From Clostridia bacterium (GTDB lineage Bacteria > Bacillota > Clostridia > Oscillospirales > CAG-272): a stretch of DNA of 64,000 nucleotides. How positions within the stretch are numbered: the stretch's first letter is position 1; each line of letters begins with the position of its first letter. Under the pieces are notes generated by a model. That model saw only the letters and a list, made by a program, of their open reading frames with translations, had not been told where the DNA came from and did not search any database. A program made the position numbers and the translations under genes. The stretch is from assembly GCA_017407225.1 (NCBI GenBank), contig JAFQWY010000047.1:39522-103521 (forward strand), written 5' to 3'. Positions 18,746 through 64,000 of this stretch are shown one piece after another.

Positions 18746-18774
18746 TTGCATTCCGTCAGAAAGTGTGTTAAAAT
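18746..18774 (+). promoter_or_regulatory. Sigma-A promoter
   Basis: TTGCAT-N17-TAAAAT with TG extended -10, upstream of 18895. Confidence 0.65.
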
Positions 18775-18894
18775 ACTCCTGTACTGTAAAACCATTCCGA
18801 TCCGCAATAACGGACTTACCTCACGGCTCCCGTCTTCCGGTGATAAAACGGTGAACCGCTTACTCCAAATCCATCCGAAAAGGAGAATCCATAC

Positions 18895-21201: not shown

Positions 21202-21222
21202 AAAGAAAATCTCCCTGTTCAG

Positions 21223-21257
21223 AACAGTCCCGGCCTCCGACGGTCAGGACTGTTTTT
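21223..21257 (+). terminator. Rho-independent terminator
   Basis: AACAGTCC...GGACTGTT hairpin followed by a T tract. Confidence 0.75.
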
Positions 21258-21297
21258 GTCTTCGCAGTTCCCTGACGTTTCGATTCCAAATATTCTA

Positions 21298-21326
21298 TTG
21301 CAATCCTGCTGCATATATGCTATAAT
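21298..21326 (+). promoter_or_regulatory. Sigma-A promoter of the ABC operon
   Basis: TTGCAA-N17-TATAAT with extended TG. Confidence 0.75.
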
Positions 21327-21372
21327 TGAAATAAATAGAATGCACATCTGCTGCAGAAAGGGGGAGTCGGGA

Positions 21373-35172: not shown

Positions 35173-35293
35173 GTATGTACAATCCGACGGGTTTCCGGGG
35201 GATTTTTAATAAAATTCTGTGTTTTTCGCAAAAATCACAGCGGATTATCAGTTTGGTTCAAAAAATCAAATATATCATAAAAGGAGAACACAC

Positions 35294-43998: not shown

Positions 43999-44023
43999 CC
44001 GGGTTTCCCGCAGAATACAAATC

Positions 44024-44057
44024 AGAAAGGAGCATTTCCTGCGATCTGCTCCTTTTT
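44024..44057 (+). terminator. Rho-independent terminator
   Basis: AAAGGAGCA...TGCTCCTTTTT. Confidence 0.75.
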
Positions 44058-44158
44058 GTTTTCAAGAATATATGGTTATCCCTGCGGAATAAACGATTCC
44101 GGAAATAACAACAGAAATAACAAAAACAAAAATCACCACGGCGAGGAAACAGTAAGTC

Positions 44159-47812: not shown

Positions 47813-47863
47813 AAAAATCAGGCTGACGCGTACCGGATTGTCCGGTTATGCATCGGCCTGTTT
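47811..47863. terminator. Bidirectional terminator
   Basis: A tract-CAGGCTGA...TCGGCCTG-T tract between convergent genes. Confidence 0.7.
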
Positions 47864-47873
47864 TCTTATTCAT

Positions 47874-48689
47874 TTACAGAAGACTGTTCAGGTAAGCGAT
47901 AATCCGGTTCAGCTGTTCATGACTGACGGAGTTGGCGGTATTGAGGGTAATGAAATCCCTGAGCTGTACTCGGGTTCCGTATGTATATACATGGGGCTGT
48001 CTGCCGGCTTTGTCCGTCACGTTCAGACAGGCTTCATCATCCGCAAACAGAACGCAGCCCTCGATCCATCCGCAGGAGATCTTCTGCTGACGGAACGCAT
48101 TGGAAAGACGGTACACATGGGTTCCCACCTGTTTCAGCGGATTATAGAAAGTCTTTACGGTTCTGCTGCGGTCATCCTTCTCCTGTCTGAGATTTTCGTC
48201 GCTCCAGTCACCGGTAATCGTACCCTTGTGGCCTTTCACCTCCACGATGTAAACACCGGTGGGGCCTGCCACGATCATATCCGTTTCGCTTTCCTTACCG
48301 TTGTACGGAACAATCAGATTGGTGTATACATGATAACTGCCGGGAAGATGTTCCATGATGCGGAGCGCTTTCTCCTCACCTTCGATCCCGGCCTTCAGAA
48401 TGCCCCGTTCCCGATCCTCCGCTTCTCTTCTGCCGAAAGATCCGATGATGCACAGAACGGAAAGCACCAGACCGCCGATGCAGATGTAATGAACGGTCTG
48501 CAGTACCTTGAAAAGCACGGTTCCCGCTGCAGCTGACAGCAGATCTTTCAGCCACGGTATCGCATATACAATCAACAGCGCACACACTGCCGCCGCAGCC
48601 AGTGCACCCAGAAGCACCATCACCCTCACTCTGCCGAGCTGCTTCAGATCCTCTTTGAGTTTTTCGTTTCCGCGATGGATTACAGCCAT
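47874..48689 (-). CDS. Membrane-anchored NERD nuclease-domain protein
   Basis: Two N-terminal TMs; GIEGE, ETDMIVAGPTGVYIVEVK, NPLKQ (NERD PD-(D/E)xK motifs). Confidence 0.85.
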   Translation of the reverse strand: MAVIHRGNEKLKEDLKQLGRVRVMVLLGALAAAAVCALLIVYAIPWLKDLLSAAAGTVLFKVLQTVHYICIGGLVLSVLCIIGSFGRREAEDRERGILKAGIEGEEKALRIMEHLPGSYHVYTNLIVPYNGKESETDMIVAGPTGVYIVEVKGHKGTITGDWSDENLRQEKDDRSRTVKTFYNPLKQVGTHVYRLSNAFRQQKISCGWIEGCVLFADDEACLNVTDKAGRQPHVYTYGTRVQLRDFITLNTANSVSHEQLNRIIAYLNSLL

Positions 48690-48738
48690 ATATCTTACTC
48701 CTTGTTATTCAATTCCCCGTACCGTCCGTTCTGTGCTG

Positions 48739-50214
48739 TTACTCCTCCTCCAGATCTTCGCAGATCATCTGACGGTTTTCACACATAATGAAGGGAACCA
48801 GTTCCGCCGGATCGTTTGTCAGCAGGGAGAGCAGGATGAACCGGTCAAAGGAAAACGGCACATACAGCGGCATGAAATCAAACACCGCCAGAAGGGTGTT
48901 CAGGCATCTTCGGTAATACATGATTCCGCCGTCATTGTCCGCATCCGATGCATCCGTCAGCCAGTCCATGATGTCCGCCATGGCACCGTCCAGTTCATCT
49001 CCTCCGCGTGCCAGTTTCCGCAGTTCCGCCATTTTTCCGGAAGACGGCGACAATTCCAGAAACTTCACCAGGAAGAAATATCCCATCAGCAAGATATCCC
49101 GCCGTTCAACGGGCTGCATATTGTCTCCGCGGCGGATCATACGGTCAACCGCGTTCACGTGTTCGTAATAGTTCTTGCAGAAGATATAGATTTCCTTCCG
49201 GAACAGCTCGTTCTGATCCGCACCGGAGTCCTCGGACTGCCACGCTTCGAATTCCCATCCGTTTTCCTGCAGCATTGCCCTGACCAGACATTTCAGATTG
49301 GGGTATCCGTCCTCATCCGTCGGCAGCTTTTCAAAAGAGATCAGCTCGTGCTCCCAGGATGCATATTCCGGATACAGCACCGCCAGATAACGGGTCAGAT
49401 TCATGAACCGGGAACGGCGCGTCAGTGAAAATCCGGCCGCATATTTTCCTCCGCGCAGAGCCGTGAATTCGTCCCGGATGCCGGTCATGAACGCAACCAG
49501 CTGCCCGTCCGCATCATGGGAAGGAAGTTCGGAAAACAGAATCTCTTCCAGACCGGTTCCCAGCATCTCCGTCATGCCTTCATGTGCGGAAAACGCGGCT
49601 TTTGTCTGTTTCCGAAGATCCCCCGAACTTTCGGCAAAACGGCTCAGCAGGTTTTCCGCATAGCTCCATATCCGTCTGTCCGGACTTTCAAGGCAGTACA
49701 GGCAGATGAAATCCTGAGGATTCCGAACACTGTAGAGATCGTGTCCGCAGGACAGAAGGAGCATTCCCGATGCCTCCCTGTCCATGTTCAGCACAAACGA
49801 CAGCTTGACTGCCAGAAGCCGCTGGATCCCCTGTTCGTCATTGAGATACTTTTTCCAGTTGGCTGTGGATATGGTCAGACCGTGCACACTCCTGGATATG
49901 CTGCTGAGTTTTTTCGCAATCCGATCCGTCACGCATCCGGGCCACGGCACATTCTGCTCGGCCGTCAGATCCGGATAATCCCTGCCGCATGTATAATCTC
50001 CGAACAGCTCCGGCGAATGAACCTGAAGATACCGGCGCATCAGAAATCCCGGCGTGCTGATATTCTTTCTGTCCGAAAGAAATTCTCTGATTTCCACGGC
50101 AGTCTCGTACATTTCCAGAACCGAATCGGCTTCTTCAATTTTCTCCGCAAATATCATATCGATCTGCTGCTGTACCCGGGTAGTGATGCTGTTTGCGTAA
50201 TCCATCTGATTCAA
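48739..50214 (-). CDS. Hypothetical protein with two degenerate XRE-like HTH-associated modules
   Basis: NWKKYLN...RLLAVKLSFVLNM...LLL..GH..YSVRNPQDFICLYCL, and a C-terminal echo RRDILL...LNTLLA...LY...FDRFILLSL. Confidence 0.55.
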   Translation of the reverse strand: MNQMDYANSITTRVQQQIDMIFAEKIEEADSVLEMYETAVEIREFLSDRKNISTPGFLMRRYLQVHSPELFGDYTCGRDYPDLTAEQNVPWPGCVTDRIAKKLSSISRSVHGLTISTANWKKYLNDEQGIQRLLAVKLSFVLNMDREASGMLLLSCGHDLYSVRNPQDFICLYCLESPDRRIWSYAENLLSRFAESSGDLRKQTKAAFSAHEGMTEMLGTGLEEILFSELPSHDADGQLVAFMTGIRDEFTALRGGKYAAGFSLTRRSRFMNLTRYLAVLYPEYASWEHELISFEKLPTDEDGYPNLKCLVRAMLQENGWEFEAWQSEDSGADQNELFRKEIYIFCKNYYEHVNAVDRMIRRGDNMQPVERRDILLMGYFFLVKFLELSPSSGKMAELRKLARGGDELDGAMADIMDWLTDASDADNDGGIMYYRRCLNTLLAVFDFMPLYVPFSFDRFILLSLLTNDPAELVPFIMCENRQMICEDLEEE

Positions 50215-50230
50215 TCCGTTCCTTCCGCAT

Positions 50231-50896
50231 TTATGATTCCTGTTCCGCTCTCTGCGGAATCAGAACAATTCTGCTGCTTCGAATGAGGGAGACACAGGTA
50301 CAGTCGTCTGCCGGTCTTTCCGTCATCTCCGGAGTGTCGGATCCGTCCGTCAGCAGGAAAATACCTTCAATATCCTCCTGTTTCCACCGAAAAAGCCGCA
50401 GATGCTCGAACAGACTGCAGTTCATGGTCAGATATGTGCTGGAAGAATCGATCCCGTTGGCAGGTCTGGAGACAAGTTCAAGACCGTTTCCGTGCTGCCG
50501 ACGCCGCAGAATCATGCCGTCGCCCAGATGGAGGCACAGGCATCTGCCGTCCTCATGCATGACTGCTGCCAGAATCGTGCAGGCCATCTCGCCGGGATCA
50601 AGGCCTTTTTCCCGTGCGCAGACGTTCAGGGTATCTTCCACAATCATCACCAGCCTGCGGAGCAGCACATCCTGTTTTTCCGCAAAACATTCCTCAAACG
50701 ATCTGCACAGGAATTCGGCCAGTGTTCCGGAAACAAGCTCCGCAGCAAGCTCTCCGGCCGCAAAACTTCCGGCTCCGTCGCAGAGAACCGCAGCACTGCA
50801 GTCATTTCCCGAGACAGCCGAATACCGGTCCTGTGAATTCATTCCCCGTTCCGCATGGTATCTTCCGGCAAGAGATACGGCACTTGTGTAAATCAT
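50231..50896 (-). CDS. PP2C-type protein phosphatase (YegK-like)
   Basis: GRYH...NSQD, LCDGAGS, ACT, HLGDG, LTDG, DDCT. Confidence 0.85.
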   Translation of the reverse strand: MIYTSAVSLAGRYHAERGMNSQDRYSAVSGNDCSAAVLCDGAGSFAAGELAAELVSGTLAEFLCRSFEECFAEKQDVLLRRLVMIVEDTLNVCAREKGLDPGEMACTILAAVMHEDGRCLCLHLGDGMILRRRQHGNGLELVSRPANGIDSSSTYLTMNCSLFEHLRLFRWKQEDIEGIFLLTDGSDTPEMTERPADDCTCVSLIRSSRIVLIPQRAEQES

Positions 50897-51188: not shown

Positions 51189-51764
51189 ATGTTTCTCTTC
51201 ACCTTCCAGCGTGATCCCGATTACGGGGATTTTTTCGATGCCCTCGTGCAGGAACACGGCAGCAGAATGTTCTCGGCCGCCTGTGAACTGCTGGAATCCC
51301 GGGGCCGTCCCAACCGCGAGGACGCCAGGGACATTGTTCAGGACACGCTTATAAAAGTTTATAAAAATATTTCAAGATTTTACGATCTTGACCGTGAGGA
51401 AATCATCCCTCTCCTCGTTATCTATACCAGAAACACCGCAAAGGATTTCATCAAGCGCAAATCCAACCGTCTGCATCTGCCCCTGTTCACCGTTCTGGAT
51501 GACGAAGAGGAAGAGCTGCCCGTCGCCGATACCGCGCCGCTGCCGGAGGAAGTAATCATCCGTCAGGAAACCGTGGACCGCACCGCCGCCGCCATAGACA
51601 GTCTGCCGGAAACCCAGCGGCATGCCGTTCTGCTGAAATACCGCTACGGATACACCGACCGGGAAATTGCAAAAATCCTGTGCATCTCGGAAAGTGCCGT
51701 CAGCTCCCGTCTGAACCGTGCCAGAGAATCCCTGAAAAAACTGCTGAAAGGAGAGGAATCATGA
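51189..51764 (+). CDS. ECF RNA polymerase sigma factor
   Basis: Region 2 DARDIVQDTLIK...RNTAKD; region 4 LPETQR...EIAKIL...VSSRLNRARESL. Confidence 0.92.
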   Translation: MFLFTFQRDPDYGDFFDALVQEHGSRMFSAACELLESRGRPNREDARDIVQDTLIKVYKNISRFYDLDREEIIPLLVIYTRNTAKDFIKRKSNRLHLPLFTVLDDEEEELPVADTAPLPEEVIIRQETVDRTAAAIDSLPETQRHAVLLKYRYGYTDREIAKILCISESAVSSRLNRARESLKKLLKGEES

Positions 51765-52450
51765 ACAAGCCCACCCGTAACGATCCCCTGGATGCCCTGC
51801 TCTACGCATCCGCAAAATCCGCCGGCCAGAATGAGCGCAGTCAGTATGAATCCGCCTCTCCCGAAAACACCCTCACCGATGCTGAAAAGAAAAAGATCAT
51901 CCGACGGGCAAAGGATCCCCGCAATCTGAAGAAAACCGCGTCCGTCATCATGAAGCGCGCCGCCGTCATCGTGCTGGTGATTCTGTCCGTCAGCTTCACC
52001 TGCGCCATGAGTGTGGACTCGGTCAGAGAAGCCCTGTGGCACAGCATTTTTGAAAACGGCACCTATCATATCAACATCCAGTACATCACGGACGAGGGCG
52101 AAGTTCTCCCCGATGCCATCGCCGAATTCAAGGAACCGGATCCCGGGGAAGGCTACACCCGCCGGGAAATCGGAAAGAGCAAGTTCAAGTACCACATCGA
52201 ATACGACCGGGACGGCATGACTCTCACCTACAGCCAGAGCCTGCTGAAAGACTATGAATTCACTGTCACCGAACATTATTCCGCCCCCACGCCCGAAACG
52301 AAGGAAATCTCCGTGAACGGCTGCGACGGAATCCTGATCACCACGGGTGAGCTGCTCTACCTGAACTGGCACGACAACGTGTATGTGTACAGCCTCGGGG
52401 GAGCCGTGCCCTTTGAGGAGCTTCTCCGGATCGCGGAAACCCTGCAATAA
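51761..52450 (+). CDS. Membrane anti-sigma factor-like protein (DUF4367-like)
   Basis: ATGA overlap with the sigma gene, single TM, C-terminal ISVNGCDG...LNW...EELLRIAETL. Confidence 0.8.
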   Translation: MNKPTRNDPLDALLYASAKSAGQNERSQYESASPENTLTDAEKKKIIRRAKDPRNLKKTASVIMKRAAVIVLVILSVSFTCAMSVDSVREALWHSIFENGTYHINIQYITDEGEVLPDAIAEFKEPDPGEGYTRREIGKSKFKYHIEYDRDGMTLTYSQSLLKDYEFTVTEHYSAPTPETKEISVNGCDGILITTGELLYLNWHDNVYVYSLGGAVPFEELLRIAETLQ

Positions 52451-52455: not shown

Positions 52456-52487
52456 CAGCCATACTCTACAATGGGTATGGCTGTTTT
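52456..52487 (+). terminator. Rho-independent terminator after the anti-sigma gene
   Basis: CAGCCATACTC-loop-GGGTATGGCTG-TTTT. Confidence 0.7.
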
Positions 52488-52607: not shown

Positions 52608-53909
52608 ATGAAAAAACTGACTGCACTTTTATTGGCTGTGCTCACCCTCGCATCCTGCACGGCTGATACGGAGATTGATATTGCAGAAAATCTCGAAACC
52701 TTCCGCGATGTTTTTACGGAAGAAACGGAAGCGGGCGAAACCATACTCCCCTACATACCGCCGGAAGACAGCGCTTCCGTCACCGGGATTATAGCGCAGG
52801 ATTTCACCATTCAGGACGGAAAGTATTATTTTGAGCTCAAACATGCCTTCGGTACCGGCGGCGGTGTGCGTATGCTGGCGTATGCGGATGTGGCAACCGG
52901 CAACTATGGTATTGTCTGTCAGGACCATCTGTGTCCCCATACCAGCTCCAAGGTCTGCAAATATGCGGATCTGTCTTATCACTGCTTCACAGACAAACCG
53001 GGGGTCTATTATGCTGTCCGTATGGAGATTCCCATGTATCTCTGCCGTGTGGATCTGAATCAAGATATTGTTGAAAACATCCATGAGCTGGATTTTTTCG
53101 GATGGGATATGCTCGGATATACCGACGGACGGATGTATTTCTATGAATCCGAATATATGACAGTGGATCAGAAAACCACCTGTATTCCTCATATCTTCTA
53201 TGTGGATGACAATACCCGCGAAATCATCGAGATTGAACAACCCTCCGGCGACTGGATATATACCAATACCTCTCCGCGTTTTGTCTGGAATGGGAATTTC
53301 TACATCTTCACCGACAAAAAAATCGTTAAAACCACTCCGACCTATGATAACCCTGAAGTGATCGCCGATCTGGGAATGGAAATCGAACAGTGGTACATGG
53401 ATACCGGCACCGGCGAGCTGTATTTCTCCTGCACCAACCCAAATACTCTTACGGGTTCTGTTTATGTGGTGAAAGATTGTATTGAACCGGAAAAAGTGAA
53501 TCTTCCCCACGAAAACATCTACACCTTCACCCTCAACGCCGACCGGATTTACTATACCGTCTATGATCCTGTGTTTATGGGCATCAGCGGTCAGTCGTTC
53601 TTCAAGAAAGAAGGCGAGGAAGACCGAAAATCCTGCGACTACACCGGCGGAAAACTGTATGCTGTTGACAGGGACAATCCTTCCGTCGCCGAGGAAATGG
53701 TTTACGAAGTCAGCGGCATCCCGCTGGACAAGGCTTTGAGACTGGAAAGCAGCGTTGTCGTGGGAGATTATCTGTATGTTGATGAAATTAATGTTCTGCG
53801 TGAAGTCCGGAACGGGCAAGAGTATATCTCCTTCGACTACGCCCGCGATGTCAGCAAAATCCGCGTGGGACTGAAGGACGGATCGTTTACGAGAATCTCA
53901 TTTGACTGA
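52608..53909 (+). CDS. Tandem-array lipoprotein 1 (probable beta-propeller, Cx4CxHx5C motif)
   Basis: MKKLTALLLAVLTLASC lipobox; CQDHLCPHTSSKVC. Confidence 0.85.
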   Translation: MKKLTALLLAVLTLASCTADTEIDIAENLETFRDVFTEETEAGETILPYIPPEDSASVTGIIAQDFTIQDGKYYFELKHAFGTGGGVRMLAYADVATGNYGIVCQDHLCPHTSSKVCKYADLSYHCFTDKPGVYYAVRMEIPMYLCRVDLNQDIVENIHELDFFGWDMLGYTDGRMYFYESEYMTVDQKTTCIPHIFYVDDNTREIIEIEQPSGDWIYTNTSPRFVWNGNFYIFTDKKIVKTTPTYDNPEVIADLGMEIEQWYMDTGTGELYFSCTNPNTLTGSVYVVKDCIEPEKVNLPHENIYTFTLNADRIYYTVYDPVFMGISGQSFFKKEGEEDRKSCDYTGGKLYAVDRDNPSVAEEMVYEVSGIPLDKALRLESSVVVGDYLYVDEINVLREVRNGQEYISFDYARDVSKIRVGLKDGSFTRISFD

Positions 53910-53923
53910 TTTGGAGGAACATC

Positions 53924-55204
53924 ATGAAAAAACTGACTGCACTGTTACTGACACTCTTCACCCTCGCTTCCTGCACAGCTGATACGGAGATTGATATTGC
54001 CGAAGGGCTGGAAACTTACCGTGACACCTTCATCGGGGAAAGCGAGACTGCATATATACCGCCGGATATCGAAGAAGCGATCGGCGGGATCTTTTGCGAA
54101 TACTTTTCCATTCAGGACAACAAATTCTACTTTGAACTCAAAAAGCGAACCCCGAACAGTGCCGTTTCCATGTATGCCTATACCGATCTGCTAACGGGCA
54201 ACACCGCGCCCATCTGTCCAGATCCTCTCTGCACCCACGATGCGGCGGAAGACTGCAAATACTACGATTTTCAGCAGGGAATCTGGTTCACGGAACATTC
54301 GGGTGTATTCTACACTCACCGCAAAGGTGAAGGTGCTTTGGATATCTGCAAAGCGGATCTGAAAAACGACACCGTGGAGCTGGCATATCATCCTGAAGAA
54401 ATATTCGCTTCCGTTTTCGGATACTGGGACGGAAGGCTGTATTTTTACGAGAACCTGCATTACACGGAAGACAAAAAGACCATAACCAAAAGACGGATGT
54501 CCTATATTGACAATGCCACCGGGGAGATTGTTCATATCGGGTATTTTCCGGAAGGCTTCAGCGGATATCCCATATTTATCAGTAAGGGAAAAATCTACTA
54601 CACAAGCGAGAAAATACTGGGACGCATGGATCTGGATTTCGAAAACCGTGAGGAACTGCTGGAGCTTCCCTACGGTATGGATCAGTGGTTCTGTGACGAA
54701 AACACCGGCGAGCTGTATTTTGCTTCCGTTGATGAAAGCCGGGTAACCGGAGCAGTCTACCGGTATGACGGCGAAAAAGCAGAAAAACTCCCCCTGCCCC
54801 ACGCTGAAATCTATCTGTTCACCCTGACCAACGAAAAAATTTACTACTCCCCGTTTGATCCCATTTATCACGGTGTGCATCCGTTCAACGGCGGCGTCCA
54901 TACAGTCAGTTACGATCCCTACCAGTTTGTCTGGGACTATGCAGGCGGAAAAATCTACTCCGTTCCCCGTGAAAATCCGTCTGCCGAGCCGGAACTGGTT
55001 TATGACAACGGCGGGGAGACTCTGGTTGCCAATCTGAATCATCCCTATACCATATTCGGCGACTACCTCTACTTTGACGAGATTGAGCTGACCCGCGAAG
55101 TGATCGAAGGTGTGGAATATATCTATTTCAATTCCGCACGTGAAACTTCAAAAATCCGCGTAGGACTGAAGGACGGATCATACACAAAGATAAAATTTGA
55201 ATAA
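53924..55204 (+). CDS. Tandem-array lipoprotein 2
   Basis: Lipobox LASC; CPDPLCTHDAAEDC. Confidence 0.85.
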   Translation: MKKLTALLLTLFTLASCTADTEIDIAEGLETYRDTFIGESETAYIPPDIEEAIGGIFCEYFSIQDNKFYFELKKRTPNSAVSMYAYTDLLTGNTAPICPDPLCTHDAAEDCKYYDFQQGIWFTEHSGVFYTHRKGEGALDICKADLKNDTVELAYHPEEIFASVFGYWDGRLYFYENLHYTEDKKTITKRRMSYIDNATGEIVHIGYFPEGFSGYPIFISKGKIYYTSEKILGRMDLDFENREELLELPYGMDQWFCDENTGELYFASVDESRVTGAVYRYDGEKAEKLPLPHAEIYLFTLTNEKIYYSPFDPIYHGVHPFNGGVHTVSYDPYQFVWDYAGGKIYSVPRENPSAEPELVYDNGGETLVANLNHPYTIFGDYLYFDEIELTREVIEGVEYIYFNSARETSKIRVGLKDGSYTKIKFE

Positions 55205-56573
55205 TACCGGAGGAACCCATGAAAAAACTGACTGCACTTTTACTGTCTGTGCTCACCCTCACCTCCTGCACAGCCGGTACGGAGATTGATATTGCCGAAG
55301 GGCTGGAGACTTACCGGAAGGAGTACGGTACGGAAACCGAAGCACCCTACACGGCACCGGATCTTGAAAAAGCTGTCGGCGGACTCTCCGGTGAATCCTT
55401 TTCCATTCAGGACGGACGCTACTACTTCCCCATCCGGAAATCAATCATCGTGGAAGTAAAAACAGGCCCCAATCCGGGTAAGTCACGGAGTTCCGTCGCC
55501 GCATATGCCTATGCCGATCTGAAAACCGGAAATTACGCACTGATCTGTCCCGATCCGCTATGTACCCATGCCAGCCCCGAAATCTGTAAATACTACGGCT
55601 TTGAGCAGGGCGCATGGTTCACCGAATACACCGGAGTATTCTACACCTACCGTCAGAACAAAGGTCTGGAAATCCACCGGGTTGACCTGCAGAACAACAC
55701 GGCACGTCTGGCTTATACACCCGAGCAGATGATGGCGAACATCATCGGATATCATGACGGAAAGCTGTATTTTTATGAATCCCTGAATTACACGGAGGAT
55801 AAAAAGACCGTCCGGCGGCGCAGACTCTCCTGTATCGATGACAGTACAGGAGAAATAACGGAGCTGGGCTATTTCCCGGACGGATCCGAAATCTTCCCGC
55901 GTTTTATGAAGGACGGAAAGATCTACTACATGGAAGGCAAAACACTGGGGCGGATGGATCCGGATTTCGGAAACCGGGAGGAGATTCTGAAAACCGCTTA
56001 CGGTCTTTCCCACTGGATCTGGGACGACAACACCGGGGAACTGTATTTTTCTTCCGTCAACGAGGAACTGCTGGACGGTGCAATCTACCGGTATGCCGAC
56101 GGTGCCGCGGAAAAGCTCGTGCTTCCCCATGAGGACATATATACATTCACCCTGACCAACGATAAGATTTACTACTCTCCCTATGAGCCGCTCTTTCACG
56201 GCATCAATATACTGGCTGCCGGCGATCCTGCACTGGAAGCATCCCCGCGTTATCATGTCTATGACTATACGGGAGGAAAGGTTTACTCTGTGGATCGAAG
56301 CAATCCGTCTGCGGAAGCCGAACTGGTTTACGACAACGGCGGAGAATTTCCGGTAAGCAACCTGAATCACCCCTATGTGGTATTCGGGGATTATCTGTAC
56401 ATGGATGAAATCGAGCTGACCCGCGAGGTAATCAACAGCAGGGAATATGTATACTACAACTCCGCCTTTGAAGTGAGCAAAATCCGTGTGGGTCTGAAGG
56501 ACGGATCATACACAAAGATAAAATTTGAATAATACCGGAGGAACCCATGAAAAAACTGACTGCACTTTTACTG
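55166..56573 (+). repeat. Exact 80-bp direct repeat spanning gene junctions (55166-55245 and 56494-56573)
   Basis: CTGAAGGACGGATCATACACAAAGATAAAATTTGAATAATACCGGAGGAACCCATGAAAAAACTGACTGCACTTTTACTG at both junctions. Confidence 0.9.
55219..56532 (+). CDS. Tandem-array lipoprotein 3
   Basis: Lipobox LTSC; CPDPLCTHASPEIC. Confidence 0.85.
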   Translation: MKKLTALLLSVLTLTSCTAGTEIDIAEGLETYRKEYGTETEAPYTAPDLEKAVGGLSGESFSIQDGRYYFPIRKSIIVEVKTGPNPGKSRSSVAAYAYADLKTGNYALICPDPLCTHASPEICKYYGFEQGAWFTEYTGVFYTYRQNKGLEIHRVDLQNNTARLAYTPEQMMANIIGYHDGKLYFYESLNYTEDKKTVRRRRLSCIDDSTGEITELGYFPDGSEIFPRFMKDGKIYYMEGKTLGRMDPDFGNREEILKTAYGLSHWIWDDNTGELYFSSVNEELLDGAIYRYADGAAEKLVLPHEDIYTFTLTNDKIYYSPYEPLFHGINILAAGDPALEASPRYHVYDYTGGKVYSVDRSNPSAEAELVYDNGGEFPVSNLNHPYVVFGDYLYMDEIELTREVINSREYVYYNSAFEVSKIRVGLKDGSYTKIKFE

Positions 56574-57854
56574 GCTGTGCTTACTCTCACCTCCTGCACG
56601 GCTGATACGGAGATTGATATTGCCGAAGGGCTGGAGACTTACCGGGAAGCGTATACGGAAGCCGGACGGGAAACCGAAGTTCCCTACACGCCGCCGGAAG
56701 AAATCCAAACCGAAGACACCACCACGCAGTGGGGCGGTATTTTCTCCCCGGATTTCACCGTAAGCGGCGGAAAATACTATTTTGAGACACGCCGGTCTGA
56801 AAGCCGCGGCAACTCCGTCAGCATGATCGCATACACCGATCTCGCTACCGGAAACAGCGGTATCCTCTGCCCGGATCCTCTCTGCACCCATCAGTCCGCC
56901 GAGGTCTGCAAATACGCCGATCTTGAGGGGATTTACTTCACAGACGAGGAAGGCGTGTTCTATTCCTGCAGGCATACCTTCACCACAACCATCTATCGGG
57001 TGGATGTGAACAACGATACCGTACAGACCGCCTGTGCAGTCAACTCGTTCAATGTAAATCTGCTGGGGTACGACAACGGAAAACTGTACTTCTATGAACT
57101 GAAGTTCGGCATGGAAGGACGCAAGGCAGGCATCAGCTATCTGATCTCCTGTCTGGATACCGACACCGAAAAGGTCACGGAGCTCGGTTACATCCCCGAT
57201 GAATGGGCCCTGACGCTGAATCTCATCCTGTTCGTGCGGAACGATGAGATTTACTTCACGGCATATTCCTCGAAGCTGATGAAGACAGATCTTTCCCTCA
57301 TAAACGTCACCGAGGTCATCGCAGCGGATCCCTGGCAGTGGTACTGGGATGAGGGCACGGATGCACTGTATTTCTCCACCTCCGATCCGGAAAAACAGAC
57401 CGGCTCCGTCTATGTCCACAAAGACGGAAAGACCGAGCAGATTCCCCTGCCGCATGAGAATATCCACGCCTTCACGATGACGGAGGACAGAATCTACTAT
57501 TCCCCCTACGATCCGGTGTTCTACGGATTCAGCAATGTGGCGTTCTACTTTGAGGATGATCCCGAGGAGCACAAGGTTTACGATTACACCGGAGGCAAGG
57601 TTTACGCCGTGGACCGTGACAATCCTTCCGCAGAAGCGGAGCTGGTCTACGAAGCGTCCGGAATTGACGGAAACCGCATGGCGGATCTGGATAACTGCGC
57701 CGTATTCGGGGACTACCTGTATTTCAACGAAATCACCGTCCGGCGGGAGGTACTGGGAGGCGTGGAATTTGTGACGTTCTCCCTTGCCGATGATGTCAGC
57801 AAAATCCGCGCGGGACTGAAGGATGGATCGTTTACGAGGATCTCATTTGACTGA
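56547..57854 (+). CDS. Tandem-array lipoprotein 4
   Basis: Lipobox LTSC; CPDPLCTHQSAEVC. Confidence 0.85.
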   Translation: MKKLTALLLAVLTLTSCTADTEIDIAEGLETYREAYTEAGRETEVPYTPPEEIQTEDTTTQWGGIFSPDFTVSGGKYYFETRRSESRGNSVSMIAYTDLATGNSGILCPDPLCTHQSAEVCKYADLEGIYFTDEEGVFYSCRHTFTTTIYRVDVNNDTVQTACAVNSFNVNLLGYDNGKLYFYELKFGMEGRKAGISYLISCLDTDTEKVTELGYIPDEWALTLNLILFVRNDEIYFTAYSSKLMKTDLSLINVTEVIAADPWQWYWDEGTDALYFSTSDPEKQTGSVYVHKDGKTEQIPLPHENIHAFTMTEDRIYYSPYDPVFYGFSNVAFYFEDDPEEHKVYDYTGGKVYAVDRDNPSAEAELVYEASGIDGNRMADLDNCAVFGDYLYFNEITVRREVLGGVEFVTFSLADDVSKIRAGLKDGSFTRISFD

Positions 57855-57867
57855 TTCGGAGTATTTC

Positions 57868-59169
57868 ATGAAAAAACTGACCGTACTTTTACTGGCTGTG
57901 CTTACTCTCACCTCCTGCACGGCCGGTACCGGCGACATCGCCGAAGGGCTGGAGACTTACCGGGAAAAATATGAAGAACCCGAAGTGCCCTATATTCCCC
58001 AGGATGTGGAATCCGCTTTCAATATCGTGTCCCAGGACGTCTGTATCCGGGACGGGAAGTATTATTTTGAGCTGAAGAAGGCATTCGATCACGGCGGAGG
58101 TGTGCGGATGATCACCTGCGTGGATGTGGCCACCGGAAACTTCGGCGCGGTATGTCCCGATCCCCTGTGCACCCATTCAAACAGGGAGGAATGCAAGTAT
58201 GCCGATCTGTCGCAGTGCCATTTTTCTGATATTCCGGGGGTGTACTATACCTATCTCTTTGACCTGAACTCTCAGATTTACCGCGTGGATCTGAACCGTG
58301 ACACCGTGGAGCTTGTTTACACCTTCACCGAAGAAGGACACGGTTTCGGAAGCATACGGGGATACGCGGACGGAAAGCTGTATTTTTATCAGATGCTATA
58401 TGAAACCGCGGACAAAAAAACAGAAACACGTGAAAAGCTCTACTATCTGGAGGAAGCCACCGGGGAAATCGTACAATATGAGCAAACCGACGATCTCTCC
58501 GTCTTCACCGGAAGAACGCCTCACTTCATCCTTGACGGATATTTCTGGTTTGTTTCCGGCAATCAGCTGATCCGCACCGATTCCGACTATCGGAATCACA
58601 CCGTGGTCGCGGAATTTGACAATACTGTCCGGCAGTGGTACATGGATCTGGAAACGAGAGAGCTGTATTTTGCATTCAGGGACGATGAAGCACGCACCGG
58701 CTCCGTGTATGTTTACCGGGATGGTGTGACAGAACAGATACCGCTGCCCCACGCAGCCATCAGTGCCTTCACCCTCACCGAGGACAGAATTCTCTATTGC
58801 ATCTACGATCCCGTGTTCTACGGCATCAGCAAACTGGCGTTTCATGCGGATATGAACGGCGAAACCTATGATCCGGAGCAATACTACACCTACGACATGA
58901 CCGGAGGAAAGCTGTACGCCGTGGACAGAGACAATCCCTCCGGGGACGCGGAGCTGATCTATGCCTCCGAAAACATCGCAGCAGACAAGCTGGCAAAGCT
59001 GGACTCCTGCATCGCACTGGGGGATTATCTGTACTTCGATCAGATTGAAATCACCCGTGAAGTGATCAACGGCAAGGAGTACATCTTCAAAAGCTCGGCG
59101 CGCAACGTGGAGAAAATCCGGTACGGGCTGAAGGACGGTTCCCTCTCCCGCGTAACATTCGGAAACTGA
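57868..59169 (+). CDS. Tandem-array lipoprotein 5
   Basis: Lipobox LTSC; CPDPLCTHSNREEC. Confidence 0.85.
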   Translation: MKKLTVLLLAVLTLTSCTAGTGDIAEGLETYREKYEEPEVPYIPQDVESAFNIVSQDVCIRDGKYYFELKKAFDHGGGVRMITCVDVATGNFGAVCPDPLCTHSNREECKYADLSQCHFSDIPGVYYTYLFDLNSQIYRVDLNRDTVELVYTFTEEGHGFGSIRGYADGKLYFYQMLYETADKKTETREKLYYLEEATGEIVQYEQTDDLSVFTGRTPHFILDGYFWFVSGNQLIRTDSDYRNHTVVAEFDNTVRQWYMDLETRELYFAFRDDEARTGSVYVYRDGVTEQIPLPHAAISAFTLTEDRILYCIYDPVFYGISKLAFHADMNGETYDPEQYYTYDMTGGKLYAVDRDNPSGDAELIYASENIAADKLAKLDSCIALGDYLYFDQIEITREVINGKEYIFKSSARNVEKIRYGLKDGSLSRVTFGN

Positions 59170-59197
59170 ATTGATCTGAACAATGAAAGGAACCATC

Positions 59198-60553
59198 ATG
59201 AAAAAACTGACTGCACTTCTGCTGGCTGTGCTTACCCTCGCTTCCTGCACAGCCGGTACGGATGATATCGCCGAGGGGCTGGAGACTTACCGGGATGTAT
59301 ACGGCGGAACTCCCGCGCCCGTGCAGACGGAAGCACCTGACGAAACCGAAACTGAAACCGCAATCCCGGAGGAGGATCTCCCCGTGAATTACGGTACCAC
59401 CGTGGAGGGGATTGTGTCGGATGACTTTACCATCAATGACGGGAAGATGTATTTTGAGCTGCAAGCCAATAATTCGGGAGGGACAACATCCATGCCCGCA
59501 TACATAGATCTGAAAACCGGGCATTTCGCCTATGTATGCCCCGACCCGCTCTGCTCCCATGACGATGTAAAAAACTGCAAATACTTTGAAACCCAGACAT
59601 TGACCTTCACGGACAAGCCCGGCATCTGCTACGCTGTCCGATATCAGACTCAACCGTTTACGATTTATCGGTTTGACCTGAACAGGGATACCATGACTCC
59701 CATCGCGGAGTTTGAAGGCATAAGTCAGGAACTGATCGGATACAACCGGGGCAAGACCTATTATATAGACTGGGAAAATATAACCGAAGGCAAACAGACC
59801 CGGAGAATCACCAAACTGTATTCCATTGACGACAGCACGGGTCAAAACACAGAGATAGGCATTGTCCCGGAAGAATGGGACAGAGCACCGCTTCTGAAGC
59901 TCCTGTGGCATGACGGAAAAATCTATTTTACACAATCAACAGCAGAATCCATCACCCTCTGTGTCTCTGATCTTTCGTTTGAAAATGTACAGGAGGTTTT
60001 TGAATTTACCGGAGCTCCCGGTACAATATTCCTTGACACAAACACTGGTGAGCTTTATTTCAGCGAATACAATACTGACCGCCGCTCAGGCTCCGTGTAT
60101 GTCTGCCGGGACGGAGAGGTAATGGAGTTGAATCTGCCCCACGGCGAAATCTATTACTTCACCATGGACAACGATAAATTTTATTACTCCCCTTATGATC
60201 CCATCTACTACGGCATCAGCAAAACCGCCCATCTTGCTCTGCTCGCGGGCAAGGATGTGGATATCAATGAGTATAAGGTTTACGACTACTCCGGCGGAAA
60301 AATCTATGCCGTTGACCGTACCAACCCTTCACAGAACGCCGAACTCATTTATGACAACAACGGAGAAACCATGCTGTGCAATGGCAACCATCACTATACG
60401 GTGATCAATGGATGTCTCTATTACGATGAGGTTGCAGTAATGCGTGAAGTAATAGGCGGAATGGAGTATACCTATTTCGCTTCCTCCCGACAGCAGAACA
60501 AAATCCGCGTGAATCTCGCCGACGGAACCACAACGAGAATCTCATTTGAATGA
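59198..60553 (+). CDS. Tandem-array lipoprotein 6
   Basis: Lipobox LASC; CPDPLCSHDDVKNC. Confidence 0.85.
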   Translation: MKKLTALLLAVLTLASCTAGTDDIAEGLETYRDVYGGTPAPVQTEAPDETETETAIPEEDLPVNYGTTVEGIVSDDFTINDGKMYFELQANNSGGTTSMPAYIDLKTGHFAYVCPDPLCSHDDVKNCKYFETQTLTFTDKPGICYAVRYQTQPFTIYRFDLNRDTMTPIAEFEGISQELIGYNRGKTYYIDWENITEGKQTRRITKLYSIDDSTGQNTEIGIVPEEWDRAPLLKLLWHDGKIYFTQSTAESITLCVSDLSFENVQEVFEFTGAPGTIFLDTNTGELYFSEYNTDRRSGSVYVCRDGEVMELNLPHGEIYYFTMDNDKFYYSPYDPIYYGISKTAHLALLAGKDVDINEYKVYDYSGGKIYAVDRTNPSQNAELIYDNNGETMLCNGNHHYTVINGCLYYDEVAVMREVIGGMEYTYFASSRQQNKIRVNLADGTTTRISFE

Positions 60554-60569
60554 CAACGGAGGAACCATC

Positions 60570-61862
60570 ATGAAAAAACTGACTGCACTTCTGCTGGCTG
60601 CGCTTGCTCTCACTTCCTGCACAGCCGGTACGGATGATATTGCCGAGGGGCTGGAGACTTACCGGGATGTATACGGCGGAGAAACCGAAGGGAACTGTAC
60701 CGCACCGGCGGAAATTGCTGACGGGATTCTGTCACAGGATTTCATTCTCAAACACGGCAGATATTACTTTGAGCTCGAGCGTTACGGCACTGTCGAGAAA
60801 GAGTTCGGCTCCGTGCTGGGACATAATGTGATGCTGGCTTATATGGACACGGAAACCGGAAACTGGAGCTATGCCTGTTCCGATCCCCTGTGCAGCCACG
60901 ACAGCGAGCTGACCTGCCGGTACGTGAATCTGGCAGGCTGTTATCCCACCGAAACGCCGGGGGTGTATTACTGCTGCCGCACAGCAGAGCACGCATCCGA
61001 AATTCTTCTTGCGGATCTGAACCGGGACACCGTAAAGCACGTCCACACCATGGCTGCAACCTTCTCCGATATCATCGGATATGAGAACGGAAAGCTGTAT
61101 TTTTATGATAAACTCCGCTCCACGGACGGAAAGCAGACCAAAACCGTCATCCGCTTTTCCGCTCTGGATCACGCGACAGGTGAGATCACGGAACTGGGAT
61201 ATCTGCCCGATACATGGCCCTATCAGACGGCTCTGCCCGATCTGGTTCTGGACGGTCGGTTTTACTTCCGCTCCAACCGCAAGCTGATCCGCACCGATCC
61301 ATCCTTCCGGGAAATCACGGAAATTCTGGAAACGGAGTTTGAGATTGCTCAGTGGTATCTGGATCAGAACACCGGTGAGTTGTTTGTCTCCTCCGTTGAC
61401 CGGGAGCAGAATCGGGGTTCCGTCTATGTTTATCGGGACGGATCTGCAGAAAAGCTGGCACTCCCGCACGAGAACATCTTCAGCTTCACCGTTACAGCAG
61501 ACAAAATCTATTACACTGCATTCGATCCGGTTTATTATGGGATTTCTCCAATAACGTATTATATGAACGAGCAGAACACTCCGGCGCTGATCTATGACTA
61601 TTCGGGAGGCAGACTGTACGCCGCTGACCGGGATAATCCGTCAGAAAATGCGGAGCTGGTATATGAAATCCCCGCGGTTCCTGCCAATACGATGCCGCAT
61701 CTCTGGAACATCGCGGTACTGGGAGATTATCTGTTCTATGAAGAGATCAGCCTGTCCGTTCAGGTGATCGCAGGCACGGAGTATGTACAGACCGAAGACA
61801 CCGCAAAAATCCGCGTGAATCTCGCCGACGGAACCACAACGAAAATCAGCTTTGCTGACTGA
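60570..61862 (+). CDS. Tandem-array lipoprotein 7
   Basis: Lipobox LTSC; CSDPLCSHDSELTC. Confidence 0.85.
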   Translation: MKKLTALLLAALALTSCTAGTDDIAEGLETYRDVYGGETEGNCTAPAEIADGILSQDFILKHGRYYFELERYGTVEKEFGSVLGHNVMLAYMDTETGNWSYACSDPLCSHDSELTCRYVNLAGCYPTETPGVYYCCRTAEHASEILLADLNRDTVKHVHTMAATFSDIIGYENGKLYFYDKLRSTDGKQTKTVIRFSALDHATGEITELGYLPDTWPYQTALPDLVLDGRFYFRSNRKLIRTDPSFREITEILETEFEIAQWYLDQNTGELFVSSVDREQNRGSVYVYRDGSAEKLALPHENIFSFTVTADKIYYTAFDPVYYGISPITYYMNEQNTPALIYDYSGGRLYAADRDNPSENAELVYEIPAVPANTMPHLWNIAVLGDYLFYEEISLSVQVIAGTEYVQTEDTAKIRVNLADGTTTKISFAD

Positions 61863-61873: not shown

Positions 61874-64000
61874 ATGAAACTGCTGAAATTTGAATTCACC
61901 AAACATCTGACGAAATTCACCGTCATCTTCACGTCCGTGATGCTTCTCATCAGCCTTGGCGTGCTGGTTCTCCAGTATGCCGGTGAAGGTACCGGGGATG
62001 CCGCACTGATCCGGGAGGCACAGGACGCACTTCTTTCCGACTACGTCAACGACCGTGAAACCTACGATGCCGACTACGCTGATTATGAGGTGCGGCTGCA
62101 GGAATTTGAGGACGCGGTCAACACCCGGCGGATGAGCGGAACCTGGTACACCGTCCGTCTGCAGAGCAAAAAAATTGACCTTGACCGCTACGACGATCAG
62201 CGCCTGTACCGGGATGCCCAGGCTCTCATCAAGCGCACGGAAGGCTACGGCAATACCGTCCGCACCGTTGTCCGTCAGGCTTACGCAAAAATCGAGGAAA
62301 TCGGGATTCAGCCCGGCAATTACGTCTATGACTATCAGGCGGCGCTGATCACGAAATACTCGCCCCTGACGGAGCTGGAAATTCCCGTGCGGAATGTGCG
62401 GGGCTGGGAAGAATTCTTCACCCAGAAAACGCCCGTGATCTTCCTCGCCGTCACGATGCTGGGAGTATTTACGGGGATCTTCGTCACCGAAAAACGATGC
62501 CGCACTCTGAATGTCCTCAGAATCTGCAGAAACGGCGGATGCCGGATGATCCTGACCAAGCTGGTCTGCACGGGGATTTTCTCGGTGATCCTCACTCTCC
62601 TGTTCACCCTGACGCCCCTGATTGTGCTGGCGCTGACCACCGGGCTGTCGGATCCGGGAACGGTCATTCAGGCTCTGCCGTCCTTCACTCTCTGTCCTTA
62701 TCGGATTACAATCGGCGGATATCTGGCAATTTTCGTCCTGATCCGGATCGGGGTATTTCTTGCACTCTCCCTGTTCGTCACCGTATTCGGTCAGATCGCA
62801 GGCAGCGAAATCGGAGTTCTCACGGGATCCGCGGTATTTCTGGTGCTCAGTTACCTCTTATCCATGGCGGATCTCTACTCACCCCTGTTTCCCCTGCGGC
62901 AGTTCAACTTCTTCGACGGGGCGTTTGTGACCCTCTTCTTCGAGCGGTACCGCGCCGTGAATCTTTTCGGGCATCACATCGGACTGATCCCCTGTGCAGG
63001 CATGCTCCTGCTCGGCATCATCGCCATACTGACCGCCCTTTCCTTCGCCGTGAAGCTGAACAGTCCCGCTCTTACCTCCGCGCCCAGATTCCGAAAGAAA
63101 AAAACGCGCACTCAGCGGAATCAGACTGCCGCTCCGGTGATGTCCATGTCCCTGTTCCGGTATGAGCTTGCCAAGCACGTTCTGCATCCAAAAGGCATTG
63201 CCCTGATCGCACTGGCACTTGCGGCAAAAATTCTGATTTCCTATAACACTTTCGTCCCGTCCCCGTCGGAATACGAGAGAATCTACCGGGATTACCTGAG
63301 CGATCTGGGCGGAGAGATCACGGAAATGCAGGATGACTACATCGCCGGGGAGGAAGAGTATATCAATGCCAGTCTCGCGGAATATGAGACAGCCTATGAC
63401 CGGTATGAGGCCGGGGAAATCACTTATGAAGAGTACCGCACCCTTAGCGAGAAGAAAAACTACGCCGAGCTGGTGCAGAATCCCTTCGGGAAGGTGATTC
63501 TGCGGCAGAGTTATCTGAAAGGGATCCAGGCACGGGAGGAAGGATACCGCAGCATCCGGTATGTATATGAGGAAGGGATTCTCCGTCTCCTGTTTGCCGG
63601 GCCGGACATTCCTCTTCTGCTCCTGCTTCTTGTGCTGTATTCGGATCTGTTTTCCGTGGAATACCAGTCTGGATTCATCATGATCCTCAGTCTCTGCCGA
63701 AAAGGCGGAAAAAACACCTTCCGGGCAAAATTCATCCTGTGCGCGGCGGTGACCACCATCCTGTACCTGATGTTTTCCGCTCCGGATCTGTTCTTCTTCG
63801 TAAAATACTACGGCACGGAGTCTCTGTCCGCCGGCATCATGAGCATCCCGGATCTGTCTTCCCTCCGCTGGGATCTGAGTGCGGGACAGTATCTCCTCCT
63901 GTTCAAGCTGGCCTGCTGGATCGGGTACCTGATTCTGGCGGCGGCTGCGGCCTCCCTCTCTCTTCTTGCAAAGAATACCCTCACCGCCGCAGTTGTTTTT
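61874..64000 (+). CDS. Large ABC-2-type permease with two duplicated halves, runs off the right edge
   Basis: Manual translation MKLLKFEFTKHLTK...; two units each with a TM, an extracellular loop and a motif IFVTEK...LRICRNG / LFSVEYQSG..MILSLCRKGG; second half begins LFRYELAK. Confidence 0.75.
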   Translation, partial: MKLLKFEFTKHLTKFTVIFTSVMLLISLGVLVLQYAGEGTGDAALIREAQDALLSDYVNDRETYDADYADYEVRLQEFEDAVNTRRMSGTWYTVRLQSKKIDLDRYDDQRLYRDAQALIKRTEGYGNTVRTVVRQAYAKIEEIGIQPGNYVYDYQAALITKYSPLTELEIPVRNVRGWEEFFTQKTPVIFLAVTMLGVFTGIFVTEKRCRTLNVLRICRNGGCRMILTKLVCTGIFSVILTLLFTLTPLIVLALTTGLSDPGTVIQALPSFTLCPYRITIGGYLAIFVLIRIGVFLALSLFVTVFGQIAGSEIGVLTGSAVFLVLSYLLSMADLYSPLFPLRQFNFFDGAFVTLFFERYRAVNLFGHHIGLIPCAGMLLLGIIAILTALSFAVKLNSPALTSAPRFRKKKTRTQRNQTAAPVMSMSLFRYELAKHVLHPKGIALIALALAAKILISYNTFVPSPSEYERIYRDYLSDLGGEITEMQDDYIAGEEEYINASLAEYETAYDRYEAGEITYEEYRTLSEKKNYAELVQNPFGKVILRQSYLKGIQAREEGYRSIRYVYEEGILRLLFAGPDIPLLLLLLVLYSDLFSVEYQSGFIMILSLCRKGGKNTFRAKFILCAAVTTILYLMFSAPDLFFFVKYYGTESLSAGIMSIPDLSSLRWDLSAGQYLLLFKLACWIGYLILAAAAASLSLLAKNTLTAAVVF

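Follow-up and report, generated by a model that had tools for sequence, protein, structure and literature searches.

A tandem array of seven predicted β-propeller lipoproteins between an ECF sigma factor and a fused ABC-2-type permease in a Clostridia bacterium

Introduction

In Gram-positive bacteria, ATP-binding cassette (ABC) exporters of the ABC-2 type that work with helpers outside the membrane protect the cell against bacteriocins and other envelope-active compounds, and such exporters also build envelopes. Here we describe a tandem array of seven lipoprotein genes (LP1 to LP7) located between a gene pair for an extracytoplasmic function (ECF) sigma factor and a putative anti-sigma factor on one side and a permease gene on the other, in a 64-kb stretch of contig JAFQWY010000047.1 of a Clostridia bacterium; this whole stretch is referred to as the window, and all coordinates are positions in it. 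The closest described systems are LanFEG with LanI, as well as CprABC and PmtABCD, which, like the array locus, combine an ABC-2-type exporter with a lipoprotein anchored in the membrane, where it encounters the compound on the outside of the cell. PmtD ranked second among the structural matches of the permease (Z 16.3), and the ATPases of related modules gave matches to the PmtC model and, at E 1e-35 to 1e-39, to TIGR03740, the model for lantibiotic protection; with 121-133 bits, however, they stay far below the TIGR03740 cut-off of 309.75. In contrast to LanFEG, the permease described here is one fused chain of 12 transmembrane (TM) segments with two helical ectodomains, the associated regulator is an ECF sigma factor instead of a two-component system, and there are no lantibiotic genes nearby. 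Neither the lipoproteins nor the permease matched any NCBIfam model, those of LanI, LanE, LanG and LanF included, and we know of no LanI protein that is a propeller.

Other described systems share single aspects with this locus. NosDFY(L) likewise combines an ABC-2 permease, NosY (Z 14.9 to the permease model), with a periplasmic β-rich partner and a lipoprotein, but NosD is a β-helix and not a propeller, NosL is a copper chaperone, no nos genes are found here, and the partner gene is multiplied. BtuG of Bacteroides, a seven-bladed propeller with a lipid anchor that binds a ligand on behalf of a membrane transporter, resembles the array products; generic propellers, however, reach Z scores as high as that of BtuG (15.8-15.9), its sequence is not similar, no counterpart of the cysteine-histidine knuckle described below was noted, and its partner is a TonB-dependent importer of the Gram-negative outer membrane. 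In BceAB-BceRS the transporter itself is proposed to report to the regulator, Bce-type modules having a flux-sensing mechanism, but BceB is an FtsX-type permease (Z only 6.3 to the permease model) and Bce signals via a histidine kinase. The family most similar to the lipoproteins is DUF5050 (PF16472), a seven-bladed propeller of gut Firmicutes, whose structural representative we take to be 3s25 (EUBREC_1955); the Pfam definition includes neither a Cys3-His knuckle nor a lipid anchor or an ABC-2 partner such as those of the array. One paper names a DUF5050 propeller as a T7SSg component with no assigned function. Finally, the pair Tt-RpoE1/Tt-TolB of Thermoanaerobacter tengcongensis joins an ECF sigma factor of the class Clostridia to a TolB-annotated, membrane-bound extracytoplasmic protein; in that pair the role of anti-sigma factor is taken by Tt-TolB, which has a TM segment at residues 39-61 (PMC3397946), whereas the array proteins are predicted lipoproteins in a separate pump operon.

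Results

Seven paralogous lipoprotein genes in tandem

Seven intact open reading frames follow one another on the forward strand between positions 52608 and 61862, with intergenic gaps of 13-28 nt and only 11 nt before the permease gene. Their products of 426-451 aa align over their full length with 84 invariant columns, at a mean pairwise identity of 0.46 for the proteins and 0.56 for the DNA (42-50% between LP1 and the other proteins). All seven start with the same signal peptide and a lipobox L-[AT]-S-C with the cysteine at residue 17, by which LP1-LP7 are predicted to be lipoproteins; the LPAM_1 match was sub-threshold in six of them. A conserved helix near the N-terminus and an acidic linker then precede the propeller. 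The initial annotation, made from the DNA letters, had described seven paralogous tandem lipoproteins with fixed framework motifs and two loops varying in length and sequence, flanked by an ECF sigma/anti-sigma pair and an ABC permease, and this description held in part: the seven genes and their flanking genes are as reported, all quoted motifs and loop strings were found in the alignment, and the two named loops vary in both respects (alignment columns ~97-119 and 368-390), but the scaffold is not constant and the variation is not limited to these loops. An array with such shared motifs is far beyond chance. Elsewhere in the same genome, whose 92%-complete assembly consists of 375 contigs, one more distant copy was found on contig C188 and weaker relatives on contig C184.

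A predicted seven-bladed propeller with an invariant Cys3-His knuckle

Three of the lipoproteins were matched by the Pfam family DUF5050 below its cut-off of 27 bits (LP2, 22.5; LP4, 21.1; LP3, 16.7), whereas LP1, LP5, LP6 and LP7 had no Pfam match, so that none of the seven reaches the gathering cut-off; an NCBIfam scan of LP1-LP7 likewise gave no family, and sequence searches of solved structures with the lipoprotein profiles gave nothing useful. Among 1.84 billion representatives, only 245 proteins, most of them 420-470 aa long, matched the lipoprotein profile at E<=0.001. A family alignment of 77 rows was assembled from the seven copies and 70 of the 150 matches listed, about 400-500 aa long and with fragments dropped. 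Its sole invariant columns are C108, C113, H115 and C121 of LP4, which form the motif Cx4CxHx5C, and no catalytic-looking constellation besides this knuckle is conserved across the 77 rows. Of 13 neighbouring proteins checked at related loci, 12 contain the motif, and the signal peptide and lipobox recur there as well. With its three cysteines and one histidine the knuckle is a putative structural zinc site.

An AlphaFold2 model of LP4, built on the 77-row alignment, showed seven four-stranded blades at high confidence (mean predicted local distance difference test score, pLDDT, 90.9; predicted template modelling score 0.86). The helix before the propeller was modelled with low confidence, yet its sequence is conserved among the seven copies. 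In comparisons with solved seven-bladed propellers the model scored Z 14-19.6, with an S9 peptidase propeller (Z 19.6) and oligogalacturonate lyase (Z 16.6) among the matches. The Eubacterium rectale protein 3s25_A (Z 16.1, root mean square deviation 4.3, 271 residues) lies within this general propeller band, as do the BtuG lipoproteins over 295-297 residues, and no match in the structure search was prominent enough to hint at a function. Judged from this model, the fold of the lipoprotein family is a seven-bladed β-propeller that is distantly DUF5050-like.

The array is part of a recurrent module with an ABC-2-type permease

The permease at the end of the array is predicted by hydropathy to contain 12 TM segments arranged as two units of one TM segment, a helical ectodomain and five TM segments, the ectodomains lying between TM1-2 and TM7-8. 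When its AlphaFold2 model (pLDDT 84.2) was compared with known structures by VIA-align, the top 23 rows were all ABC transmembrane domains of the ABCG/ABCA/ABC-2/Lpt kind. Besides PmtD and NosY these included ABCG1 (Z 16.8), ABCG5/8 (Z 15.7), Cdr1 (Z 14.6, with model residues 1-770) and ABCA3 (Z 13.8, 1-717), and lower rows held Wzm, TagG, KpsM, CcmB and LptFG. Foldseek matches were weak (best E 0.057, none at E<=0.001). In a language-model Atlas the permease lies beside clusters with ABC-2 names, carrying PF12698 (28% of members) or PF12730 (75%), and its homologue P0182 carries a precomputed PF12698 assignment. In summary, the modelled fold points to an ABC-2-type permease in which the six-TM unit occurs twice.

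Homologues of this permease, found by tblastn, adjoin a propeller lipoprotein gene in eight of nine other loci, the ninth (L028) ending at the contig edge. An ABC_tran ATPase gene is adjacent in five of the nine (L023, L024, L025, L029 and L030); none adjoins in L026 or L036, and L027 and L028 end at a contig edge. The best scores of these ATPases were with GldA, DrrA, PQQ-system, NodI and lantibiotic-protection models, all below the cut-offs. An ECF sigma factor gene directly precedes the permease in three loci (L023, L024 and L030), so that the unit recurring in related gut Clostridia reads sigma factor, permease, one to seven lipoproteins, ATPase. Two such modules are in the same genome as the array: that on C188 (L029) consists of permease, ATPase and one lipoprotein, and that on C184 (L030) of sigma factor, an 843-aa permease, four propeller lipoproteins and ATPase. 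One C184 lipoprotein (L030:3060-4403) passes the DUF5050 cut-off with 33.4 bits. A partial fourth permease homologue was seen on contig C26. These adjacencies, together with the modelled ABC transmembrane fold and the neighbouring ATPases, bear out the claim of the initial annotation that the lipoproteins belong with the ABC permease, and the sigma factor genes at three loci lend support to its claim of a sigma factor link.

A search for related loci with patterns of the signal peptide, by whole-protein alignment, retrieved nothing from metagenome or genome collections, and one with N-terminally trimmed copies retrieved five distant metagenome loci. Co-folding of LP4 (residues 18-435) with the permease pieces 1-215 and 425-600 gave a score of 0.21 (mark 0.32), which weighs neither way, and PADLOC assigned no family to LP4, the permease or the anti-sigma protein.

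A putative anti-sigma module shared with related permeases

The sigma factor was classed as ECF on the strength of its NCBIfam match (TIGR02937, 86.5 bits; cut-off 42.9) in addition to its Pfam domains (Table 1), and the sigma factors encoded before the permease in L023 and L024 are 35-36% identical to it. The ATG of the downstream gene overlaps the sigma factor stop codon (51762-51764) in the sequence ATGA. The encoded protein has a DUF4367 domain (40.2 bits; cut-off 22.1), a domain that reportedly appears in a preprint on GerS, and a single TM segment at about residues 67-85 counted from this ATG (94-112 of a longer GTG frame). None of the known anti-sigma-domain models matched it; its layout is that of a single-pass anti-sigma factor, and it would bind the sigma factor through its cytoplasmic part. 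Because a terminator-like hairpin and a 124-nt spacer lie between the anti-sigma gene and LP1, the sequence suggests that the sigma/anti-sigma pair and the array are separate transcription units.

A link between regulator and pump is suggested by the related permeases. The three that follow a sigma factor gene (819, 820 and 843 aa) carry an N-terminal cytoplasmic extension; among the six full-length permeases that do not (752-771 aa), five are without it and that of the sister species G046 has four additional residues at the chosen start. The extension of the L024 permease is 35% identical to the first 40 residues of the window anti-sigma protein (pairwise E 2e-6), the L023 extension also aligns with the anti-sigma N-terminus, and the L030 extension aligns poorly; the homologous segments are window 51761-51880, L024:2815-2990 and L023:8294-8488 (minus strand). 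The presumed sigma-binding module thus seems to move between a free-standing form on the DUF4367 protein and a form fused to the pump. Since the module is part of the permease in these relatives, the sigma factor is tied to the transporter, which suggests that the pump may gate the sigma factor.

Upstream of the sigma factor genes in L024 (2080-2130) and L023 (minus strand, ~9170-9220), from genomes G007 and G022, an element of about 45 nt is conserved in which a T-run precedes a word containing GAAA, CGTTATAGG and GTGAAACC. It may be the autoregulated promoter of this sigma factor group; its like was not matched in the window.

The copies are old and are gained and lost

A search with LP4 found 35 proteins, and a maximum-likelihood tree was calculated from 41 rows, comprising the seven window copies, 30 of the 35 matches and four copies of G046; three matches identical to window copies and two distant ones were left out. 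The window copies were placed in different, well-supported clades, all of which also contain proteins from other contigs, and three further clades had no window member. Only LP2 and LP3 form a young duplicate pair. In G046 at least five tandem copies are followed by a permease 62.6% identical to that of the window, and these copies include one clear orthologue, that of LP1 (64%), the others reaching 47-48%. The array is therefore not conserved one-to-one in the sister species, a result that agrees with the interchangeable repertoire proposed by the initial annotation.

The first 90-150 nt of the genes, in contrast, have a DNA identity of 0.80-0.94 in most pairs compared to 0.52-0.67 overall, and a same-codon fraction of 0.78 compared to about 0.5 elsewhere, a level at which synonymous sites among the paralogues appear saturated. 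These homogenised regions (52608-52760, 53924-54070, 55219-55370, 56547-56700, 57868-58020, 59198-59350 and 60570-60720) encode the signal peptide, the lipobox and the conserved helix. The 5' DNA identity of LP6 and LP7 is as high as 0.94-0.98, and LP3 and LP4 are preceded by 40 identical nt. Homogenised 5' ends and identical upstream sequences look like the result of gene conversion or unequal crossing-over restricted to the gene junctions, and there was no sign of recent exchange among the seven genes outside the 5' 150 nt. Taken together, the sequences indicate that the array is an old family under birth-and-death evolution and not a hypervariable library.

Some contigs from foreign samples have odd joints. 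One joint runs from 56507 to 60533, that is, from the LP3 3' end to the LP6 3' end with 4025 nt skipped, and another leads from 55280 in the 5' part of LP3 back to 53993 in LP2. Both have sides of 30-32 letters in the repeated junctions and may be array variants or assembly chimeras. In run X5, positions 58167-59068 (LP5) were almost uncovered by contigs.

Sequence variation is spread over the propeller

The initial annotation had proposed a constant scaffold with two hypervariable loops resembling the complementarity-determining regions (CDRs) of antibodies. The strands of the LP4 model were assigned to blades with DSSP, and the faces of the loops were deduced from strand order; matching lengths of the B and C strands in each blade support the strand register. 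By the usual convention the B-C and D-A loops share the top face of a propeller. Both named loops are B-C connections and hence lie on one inferred face, which counts for the CDR-like proposal. Among the seven paralogues this face was the more variable one, with a mean column entropy of 1.53 for top-face loops compared to 0.95 for bottom-face turns (Mann-Whitney U test, p 2.8e-5), and 25 of 34 indel columns are in B-C or D-A loops. Broken down by element, the values were 1.63 for B-C loops and 1.43 for D-A loops compared to 1.00 for A-B turns and 0.91 for C-D turns.

Two parts of the proposal were not supported. The scaffold is not constant, the mean identity being that of a diverged family (0.46) and the strands varying about as much as the loops (1.13-1.59, with strand A at the upper end). 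Nor are there two hypervariable loops, because high entropy occurs in about eight separate 10-column blocks and about ten top-face loops, over all seven blades, are variable; variation spread over the fold in this way counts against a CDR-like design. Orthologues of the same clade hardly differ in loop 1 and are conserved to some extent in loop 2. Likewise, 50 differences in all were mapped between near-identical strain variants (LP1/P0005, LP3/P0014 and LP4/P0001); 12 of them lie in top-face loops, no enrichment at strain level for loops that account for 98 of 435 residues.

Occurrence and expression

Matches were found in 13 of 52 other species of the genus (A1 profile, E<=1e-20) and in at least 7 of 300 other genomes sampled from the order (A2 profile, E<=1e-10), the latter a lower bound since at most five candidates were scored per genome. 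The stretch is present, wholly or in part, in public sequencing runs from 13 studies, and all labelled ones are gut or faeces metagenomes. Of the words of the stretch, 20-24% occur in two metatranscriptome runs from a single study, and the contigs of these runs, mostly 95-99% alike, map to LP1, LP2, LP3, LP5, LP7 and the permease.

Features of the locus and other genes in the window

The features of the array locus are collected in Table 1. Elsewhere in the window, a surface-polysaccharide cluster (1158-16207, minus strand) contains at least nine glycosyltransferase genes (GT1/GT4, GT2) as well as genes for a TupA-like ATP-grasp protein, a DUF1919 protein and a Wzm-like ABC-2 permease. Three consecutive genes at 16988-22962 (plus strand) have products of 636, 768 and 568 aa, of which the initial two lack a Pfam match and the third ends in an FtsX-like permease domain; they may represent another uncharacterised envelope transporter. 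Two paralogues of 1193 and 1043 aa (24385-27966, minus strand; 35219-38350, plus strand) each combine three concanavalin-like Laminin_G_3 domains with a calcineurin-like phosphoesterase domain. The sigma factor gene is closely preceded by a signalling cluster (43204-50896), whose products are a cohesin-domain protein, a PP2C phosphatase, a Ser/Thr kinase of 1217 aa containing TPR and Sel1 repeats, a membrane protein with a NERD domain and a 491-aa protein without family.

Table 1. Positions and properties of the genes and sequence elements of the array locus
Feature	Position	Strand	Description
ECF sigma factor	51189-51764	+	191 aa; Pfam Sigma70_r2 and Sigma70_r4_2 above cut-off
Putative anti-sigma factor	51761-52450	+	229 aa; short cytoplasmic N-terminus, one TM segment, outer DUF4367
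Terminator-like hairpin	52456-52483	+	11-bp stem with 6 G-C pairs, T-rich tail; consensus scan
LP1	52608-53909	+	433 aa; orthologues 97% (P0005) and 64% (G046 copy 2)
LP2	53924-55204	+	426 aa; 60.7% identical to LP3
LP3	55219-56532	+	437 aa; orthologue P0014 94.5%
LP4	56547-57854	+	435 aa; copy modelled; orthologue P0001 97%
Loop 1 in LP4	56799-56813	+	residues 85-89, B-C hairpin turn of blade 1
Cx4CxHx5C knuckle of LP4	56868-56909	+	C108, C113, H115, C121; D-A connection between blades 1 and 2
Loop 2 in LP4	57507-57596	+	residues 321-350, 30-residue insertion in the B-C connection of blade 6
LP5	57868-59169	+	433 aa; best relative 49% among proteins retrieved, no close orthologue
LP6	59198-60553	+	451 aa; orthologues 78%, 70% and 68%
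LP7	60570-61862	+	430 aa; orthologue P0019 70%; first 150 nt 94-98% identical to LP6
Fused double ABC-2 (type V) permease	61874-64000, continuing 186 nt beyond the window end (L021:96-2408)	+	770 aa

Discussion

The reading of this locus that we favour, with a little more confidence than doubt, is that LP1-LP7 are extracytoplasmic accessory subunits of an ECF-linked, fused double ABC-2 exporter and were multiplied by old duplications. Each propeller would be tethered to the outer leaflet via its lipid anchor and the conserved N-terminal helix, and would present to a ligand the divergent face formed by the B-C and D-A loops around the invariant knuckle, while the better-conserved turns would dock onto and work with the single shared pump, so that different copies would widen the range of molecules the pump can handle. 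The ECF sigma/anti-sigma pair would set expression, with the state of the pump probably acting as a gate on the sigma factor, because the anti-sigma N-terminal module is part of the permease in relatives. The lipoprotein gene would have been multiplied by tandem duplication long ago, with copies gained and lost thereafter.

Several observations weigh against this interpretation. No Pfam or NCBIfam model recognises the lipoproteins above threshold, and the permease had no Pfam, NCBIfam or PDB sequence match, the ABC2_membrane family included. No ATPase gene is located beside the array locus or that of G046; after the window permease follows a URO-D-like gene on the other strand and then ApbE and Rnf genes. 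The only close ATPase homologues in the 92%-complete genome are those of the C188 and C184 modules (76% and 74% identical to the G022 ATPase), and the pump of the window may borrow one of these, or its own gene may be missing from the assembly. No convincing ECF-type promoter was found before LP1, where the expression AAC-N15-19-CGT gave one candidate with a 19-nt spacing, which is too long. The top face was assigned from strand order and not from coordinates, its bottom counterpart consists of short, Gly- or Asp-rich turns whose conservation may be structural only, and in the 77-row alignment the two faces are alike in entropy (2.47 and 2.43). The contigs from RNA libraries are compatible with expression of the module and are no proof of its transcription. 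Finally, no bacteriocin or peptide genes were seen nearby.

With regard to the substrate, the likeliest job of the proposed exporter, by analogy, would be to clear bacteriocins, other amphiphiles or similar envelope-active compounds, or to protect the cell from them, which we put forward tentatively and as something short of probable. In this it would resemble LanFEG/LanI or PmtCD, a comparison to be taken with the same reserve. A bolder version, which we regard as rather unlikely, is a device so far undescribed, in which an anti-sigma peptide in or with the ABC-2 pump would let pump activity free the ECF sigma factor, a form of flux sensing that needs no kinase, and in which the propellers with their zinc knuckle would be exchangeable substrate adaptors that each confer another specificity on the one pump and whose seven copies would broaden resistance in the gut.

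Alternatively, the module could serve export or assembly, the pump moving a building block of the cell envelope, be it a lipid, glycolipid or lipid-linked glycan, outward and the propellers acting as acceptors or chaperones, which can be likened to NosD/NosL for NosFY or to the partners of Lpt and Mla. The best permease matches are indeed movers of lipids and polymers (ABCG1, ABCG5/8, ABCA3/4, NosY, Wzm, TagG, KpsM and LptFG), the ectodomains are placed between TM1-2 and TM7-8 as in ABCA transporters, and a large glycosyltransferase cluster lies in the window. That cluster, however, is more than 35 kb distant, a housekeeping pathway would be expected to be widespread in the genus and the order and not as patchy as found here, the lipoprotein copy number ranges from one to seven, and ECF control suits a stress response better. 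We consider this explanation unlikely, if worth keeping in mind.

By analogy with Tt-TolB, the cognate anti-sigma factor of Tt-RpoE1 (PMC3397946), the propellers might instead form a bank of sensors that signal their ligands to the anti-sigma factor or the permease, with one input per copy and the pump as output. The fusion of the anti-sigma module to a permease paired with propellers would fit this arrangement, but the seven lipoproteins have no cytoplasmic part, they belong to the pump operon beyond the terminator-like hairpin, and in five of nine loci lipoprotein and permease occur without a sigma factor gene in view, which together make the proposal quite improbable.

Even less probable is the library of interchangeable heads envisaged by the initial annotation, in which two CDR-like loops on a constant scaffold would be under diversifying selection for poly-specific capture of antimicrobial peptides. 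In all seven copies the two loops are indeed of different length and sequence, and they share one inferred face; indels are concentrated in B-C and D-A loops, and species differ in what their arrays contain. However, strand A diverges as much as the B-C loops (1.59 compared to 1.63), about ten loops vary instead of two, loop 1 and in part loop 2 are kept inside orthologue clades, strain-level substitutions are not enriched in the loops, no sign of recent exchange is seen beyond the 5' ends, and the LP1 orthologue in G046 has diverged at the same rate as the permease. That the copies are redundant or decaying duplicates without distinct roles can hardly be credited, since all seven frames are open, five copies have orthologues at 70-97% in other assemblies, the family-invariant residues are kept in all seven and pieces are present in RNA libraries, even though large arrays occur only in this species and G046 and the homogenised 5' ends show that the repeats recombine.

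A full-text literature search found no description of a module of propeller lipoproteins, ABC-2 permease and ECF sigma factor, and the module is an unpublished variant of the theme of an ABC exporter with an outside helper lipoprotein. Its helper family, with a predicted propeller, a lipid anchor and an invariant Cys3-His knuckle, is one without published function, and the analysis of its seven copies corrects the tempting reading of the array as a bacterial antibody library. If the lipoproteins of the favoured exporter set its substrate range, expansion of their copy number would offer an easy way of broadening protection where gut communities are crowded, and if the pump carries an anti-sigma module, it would represent a new coupling of transport to transcription.

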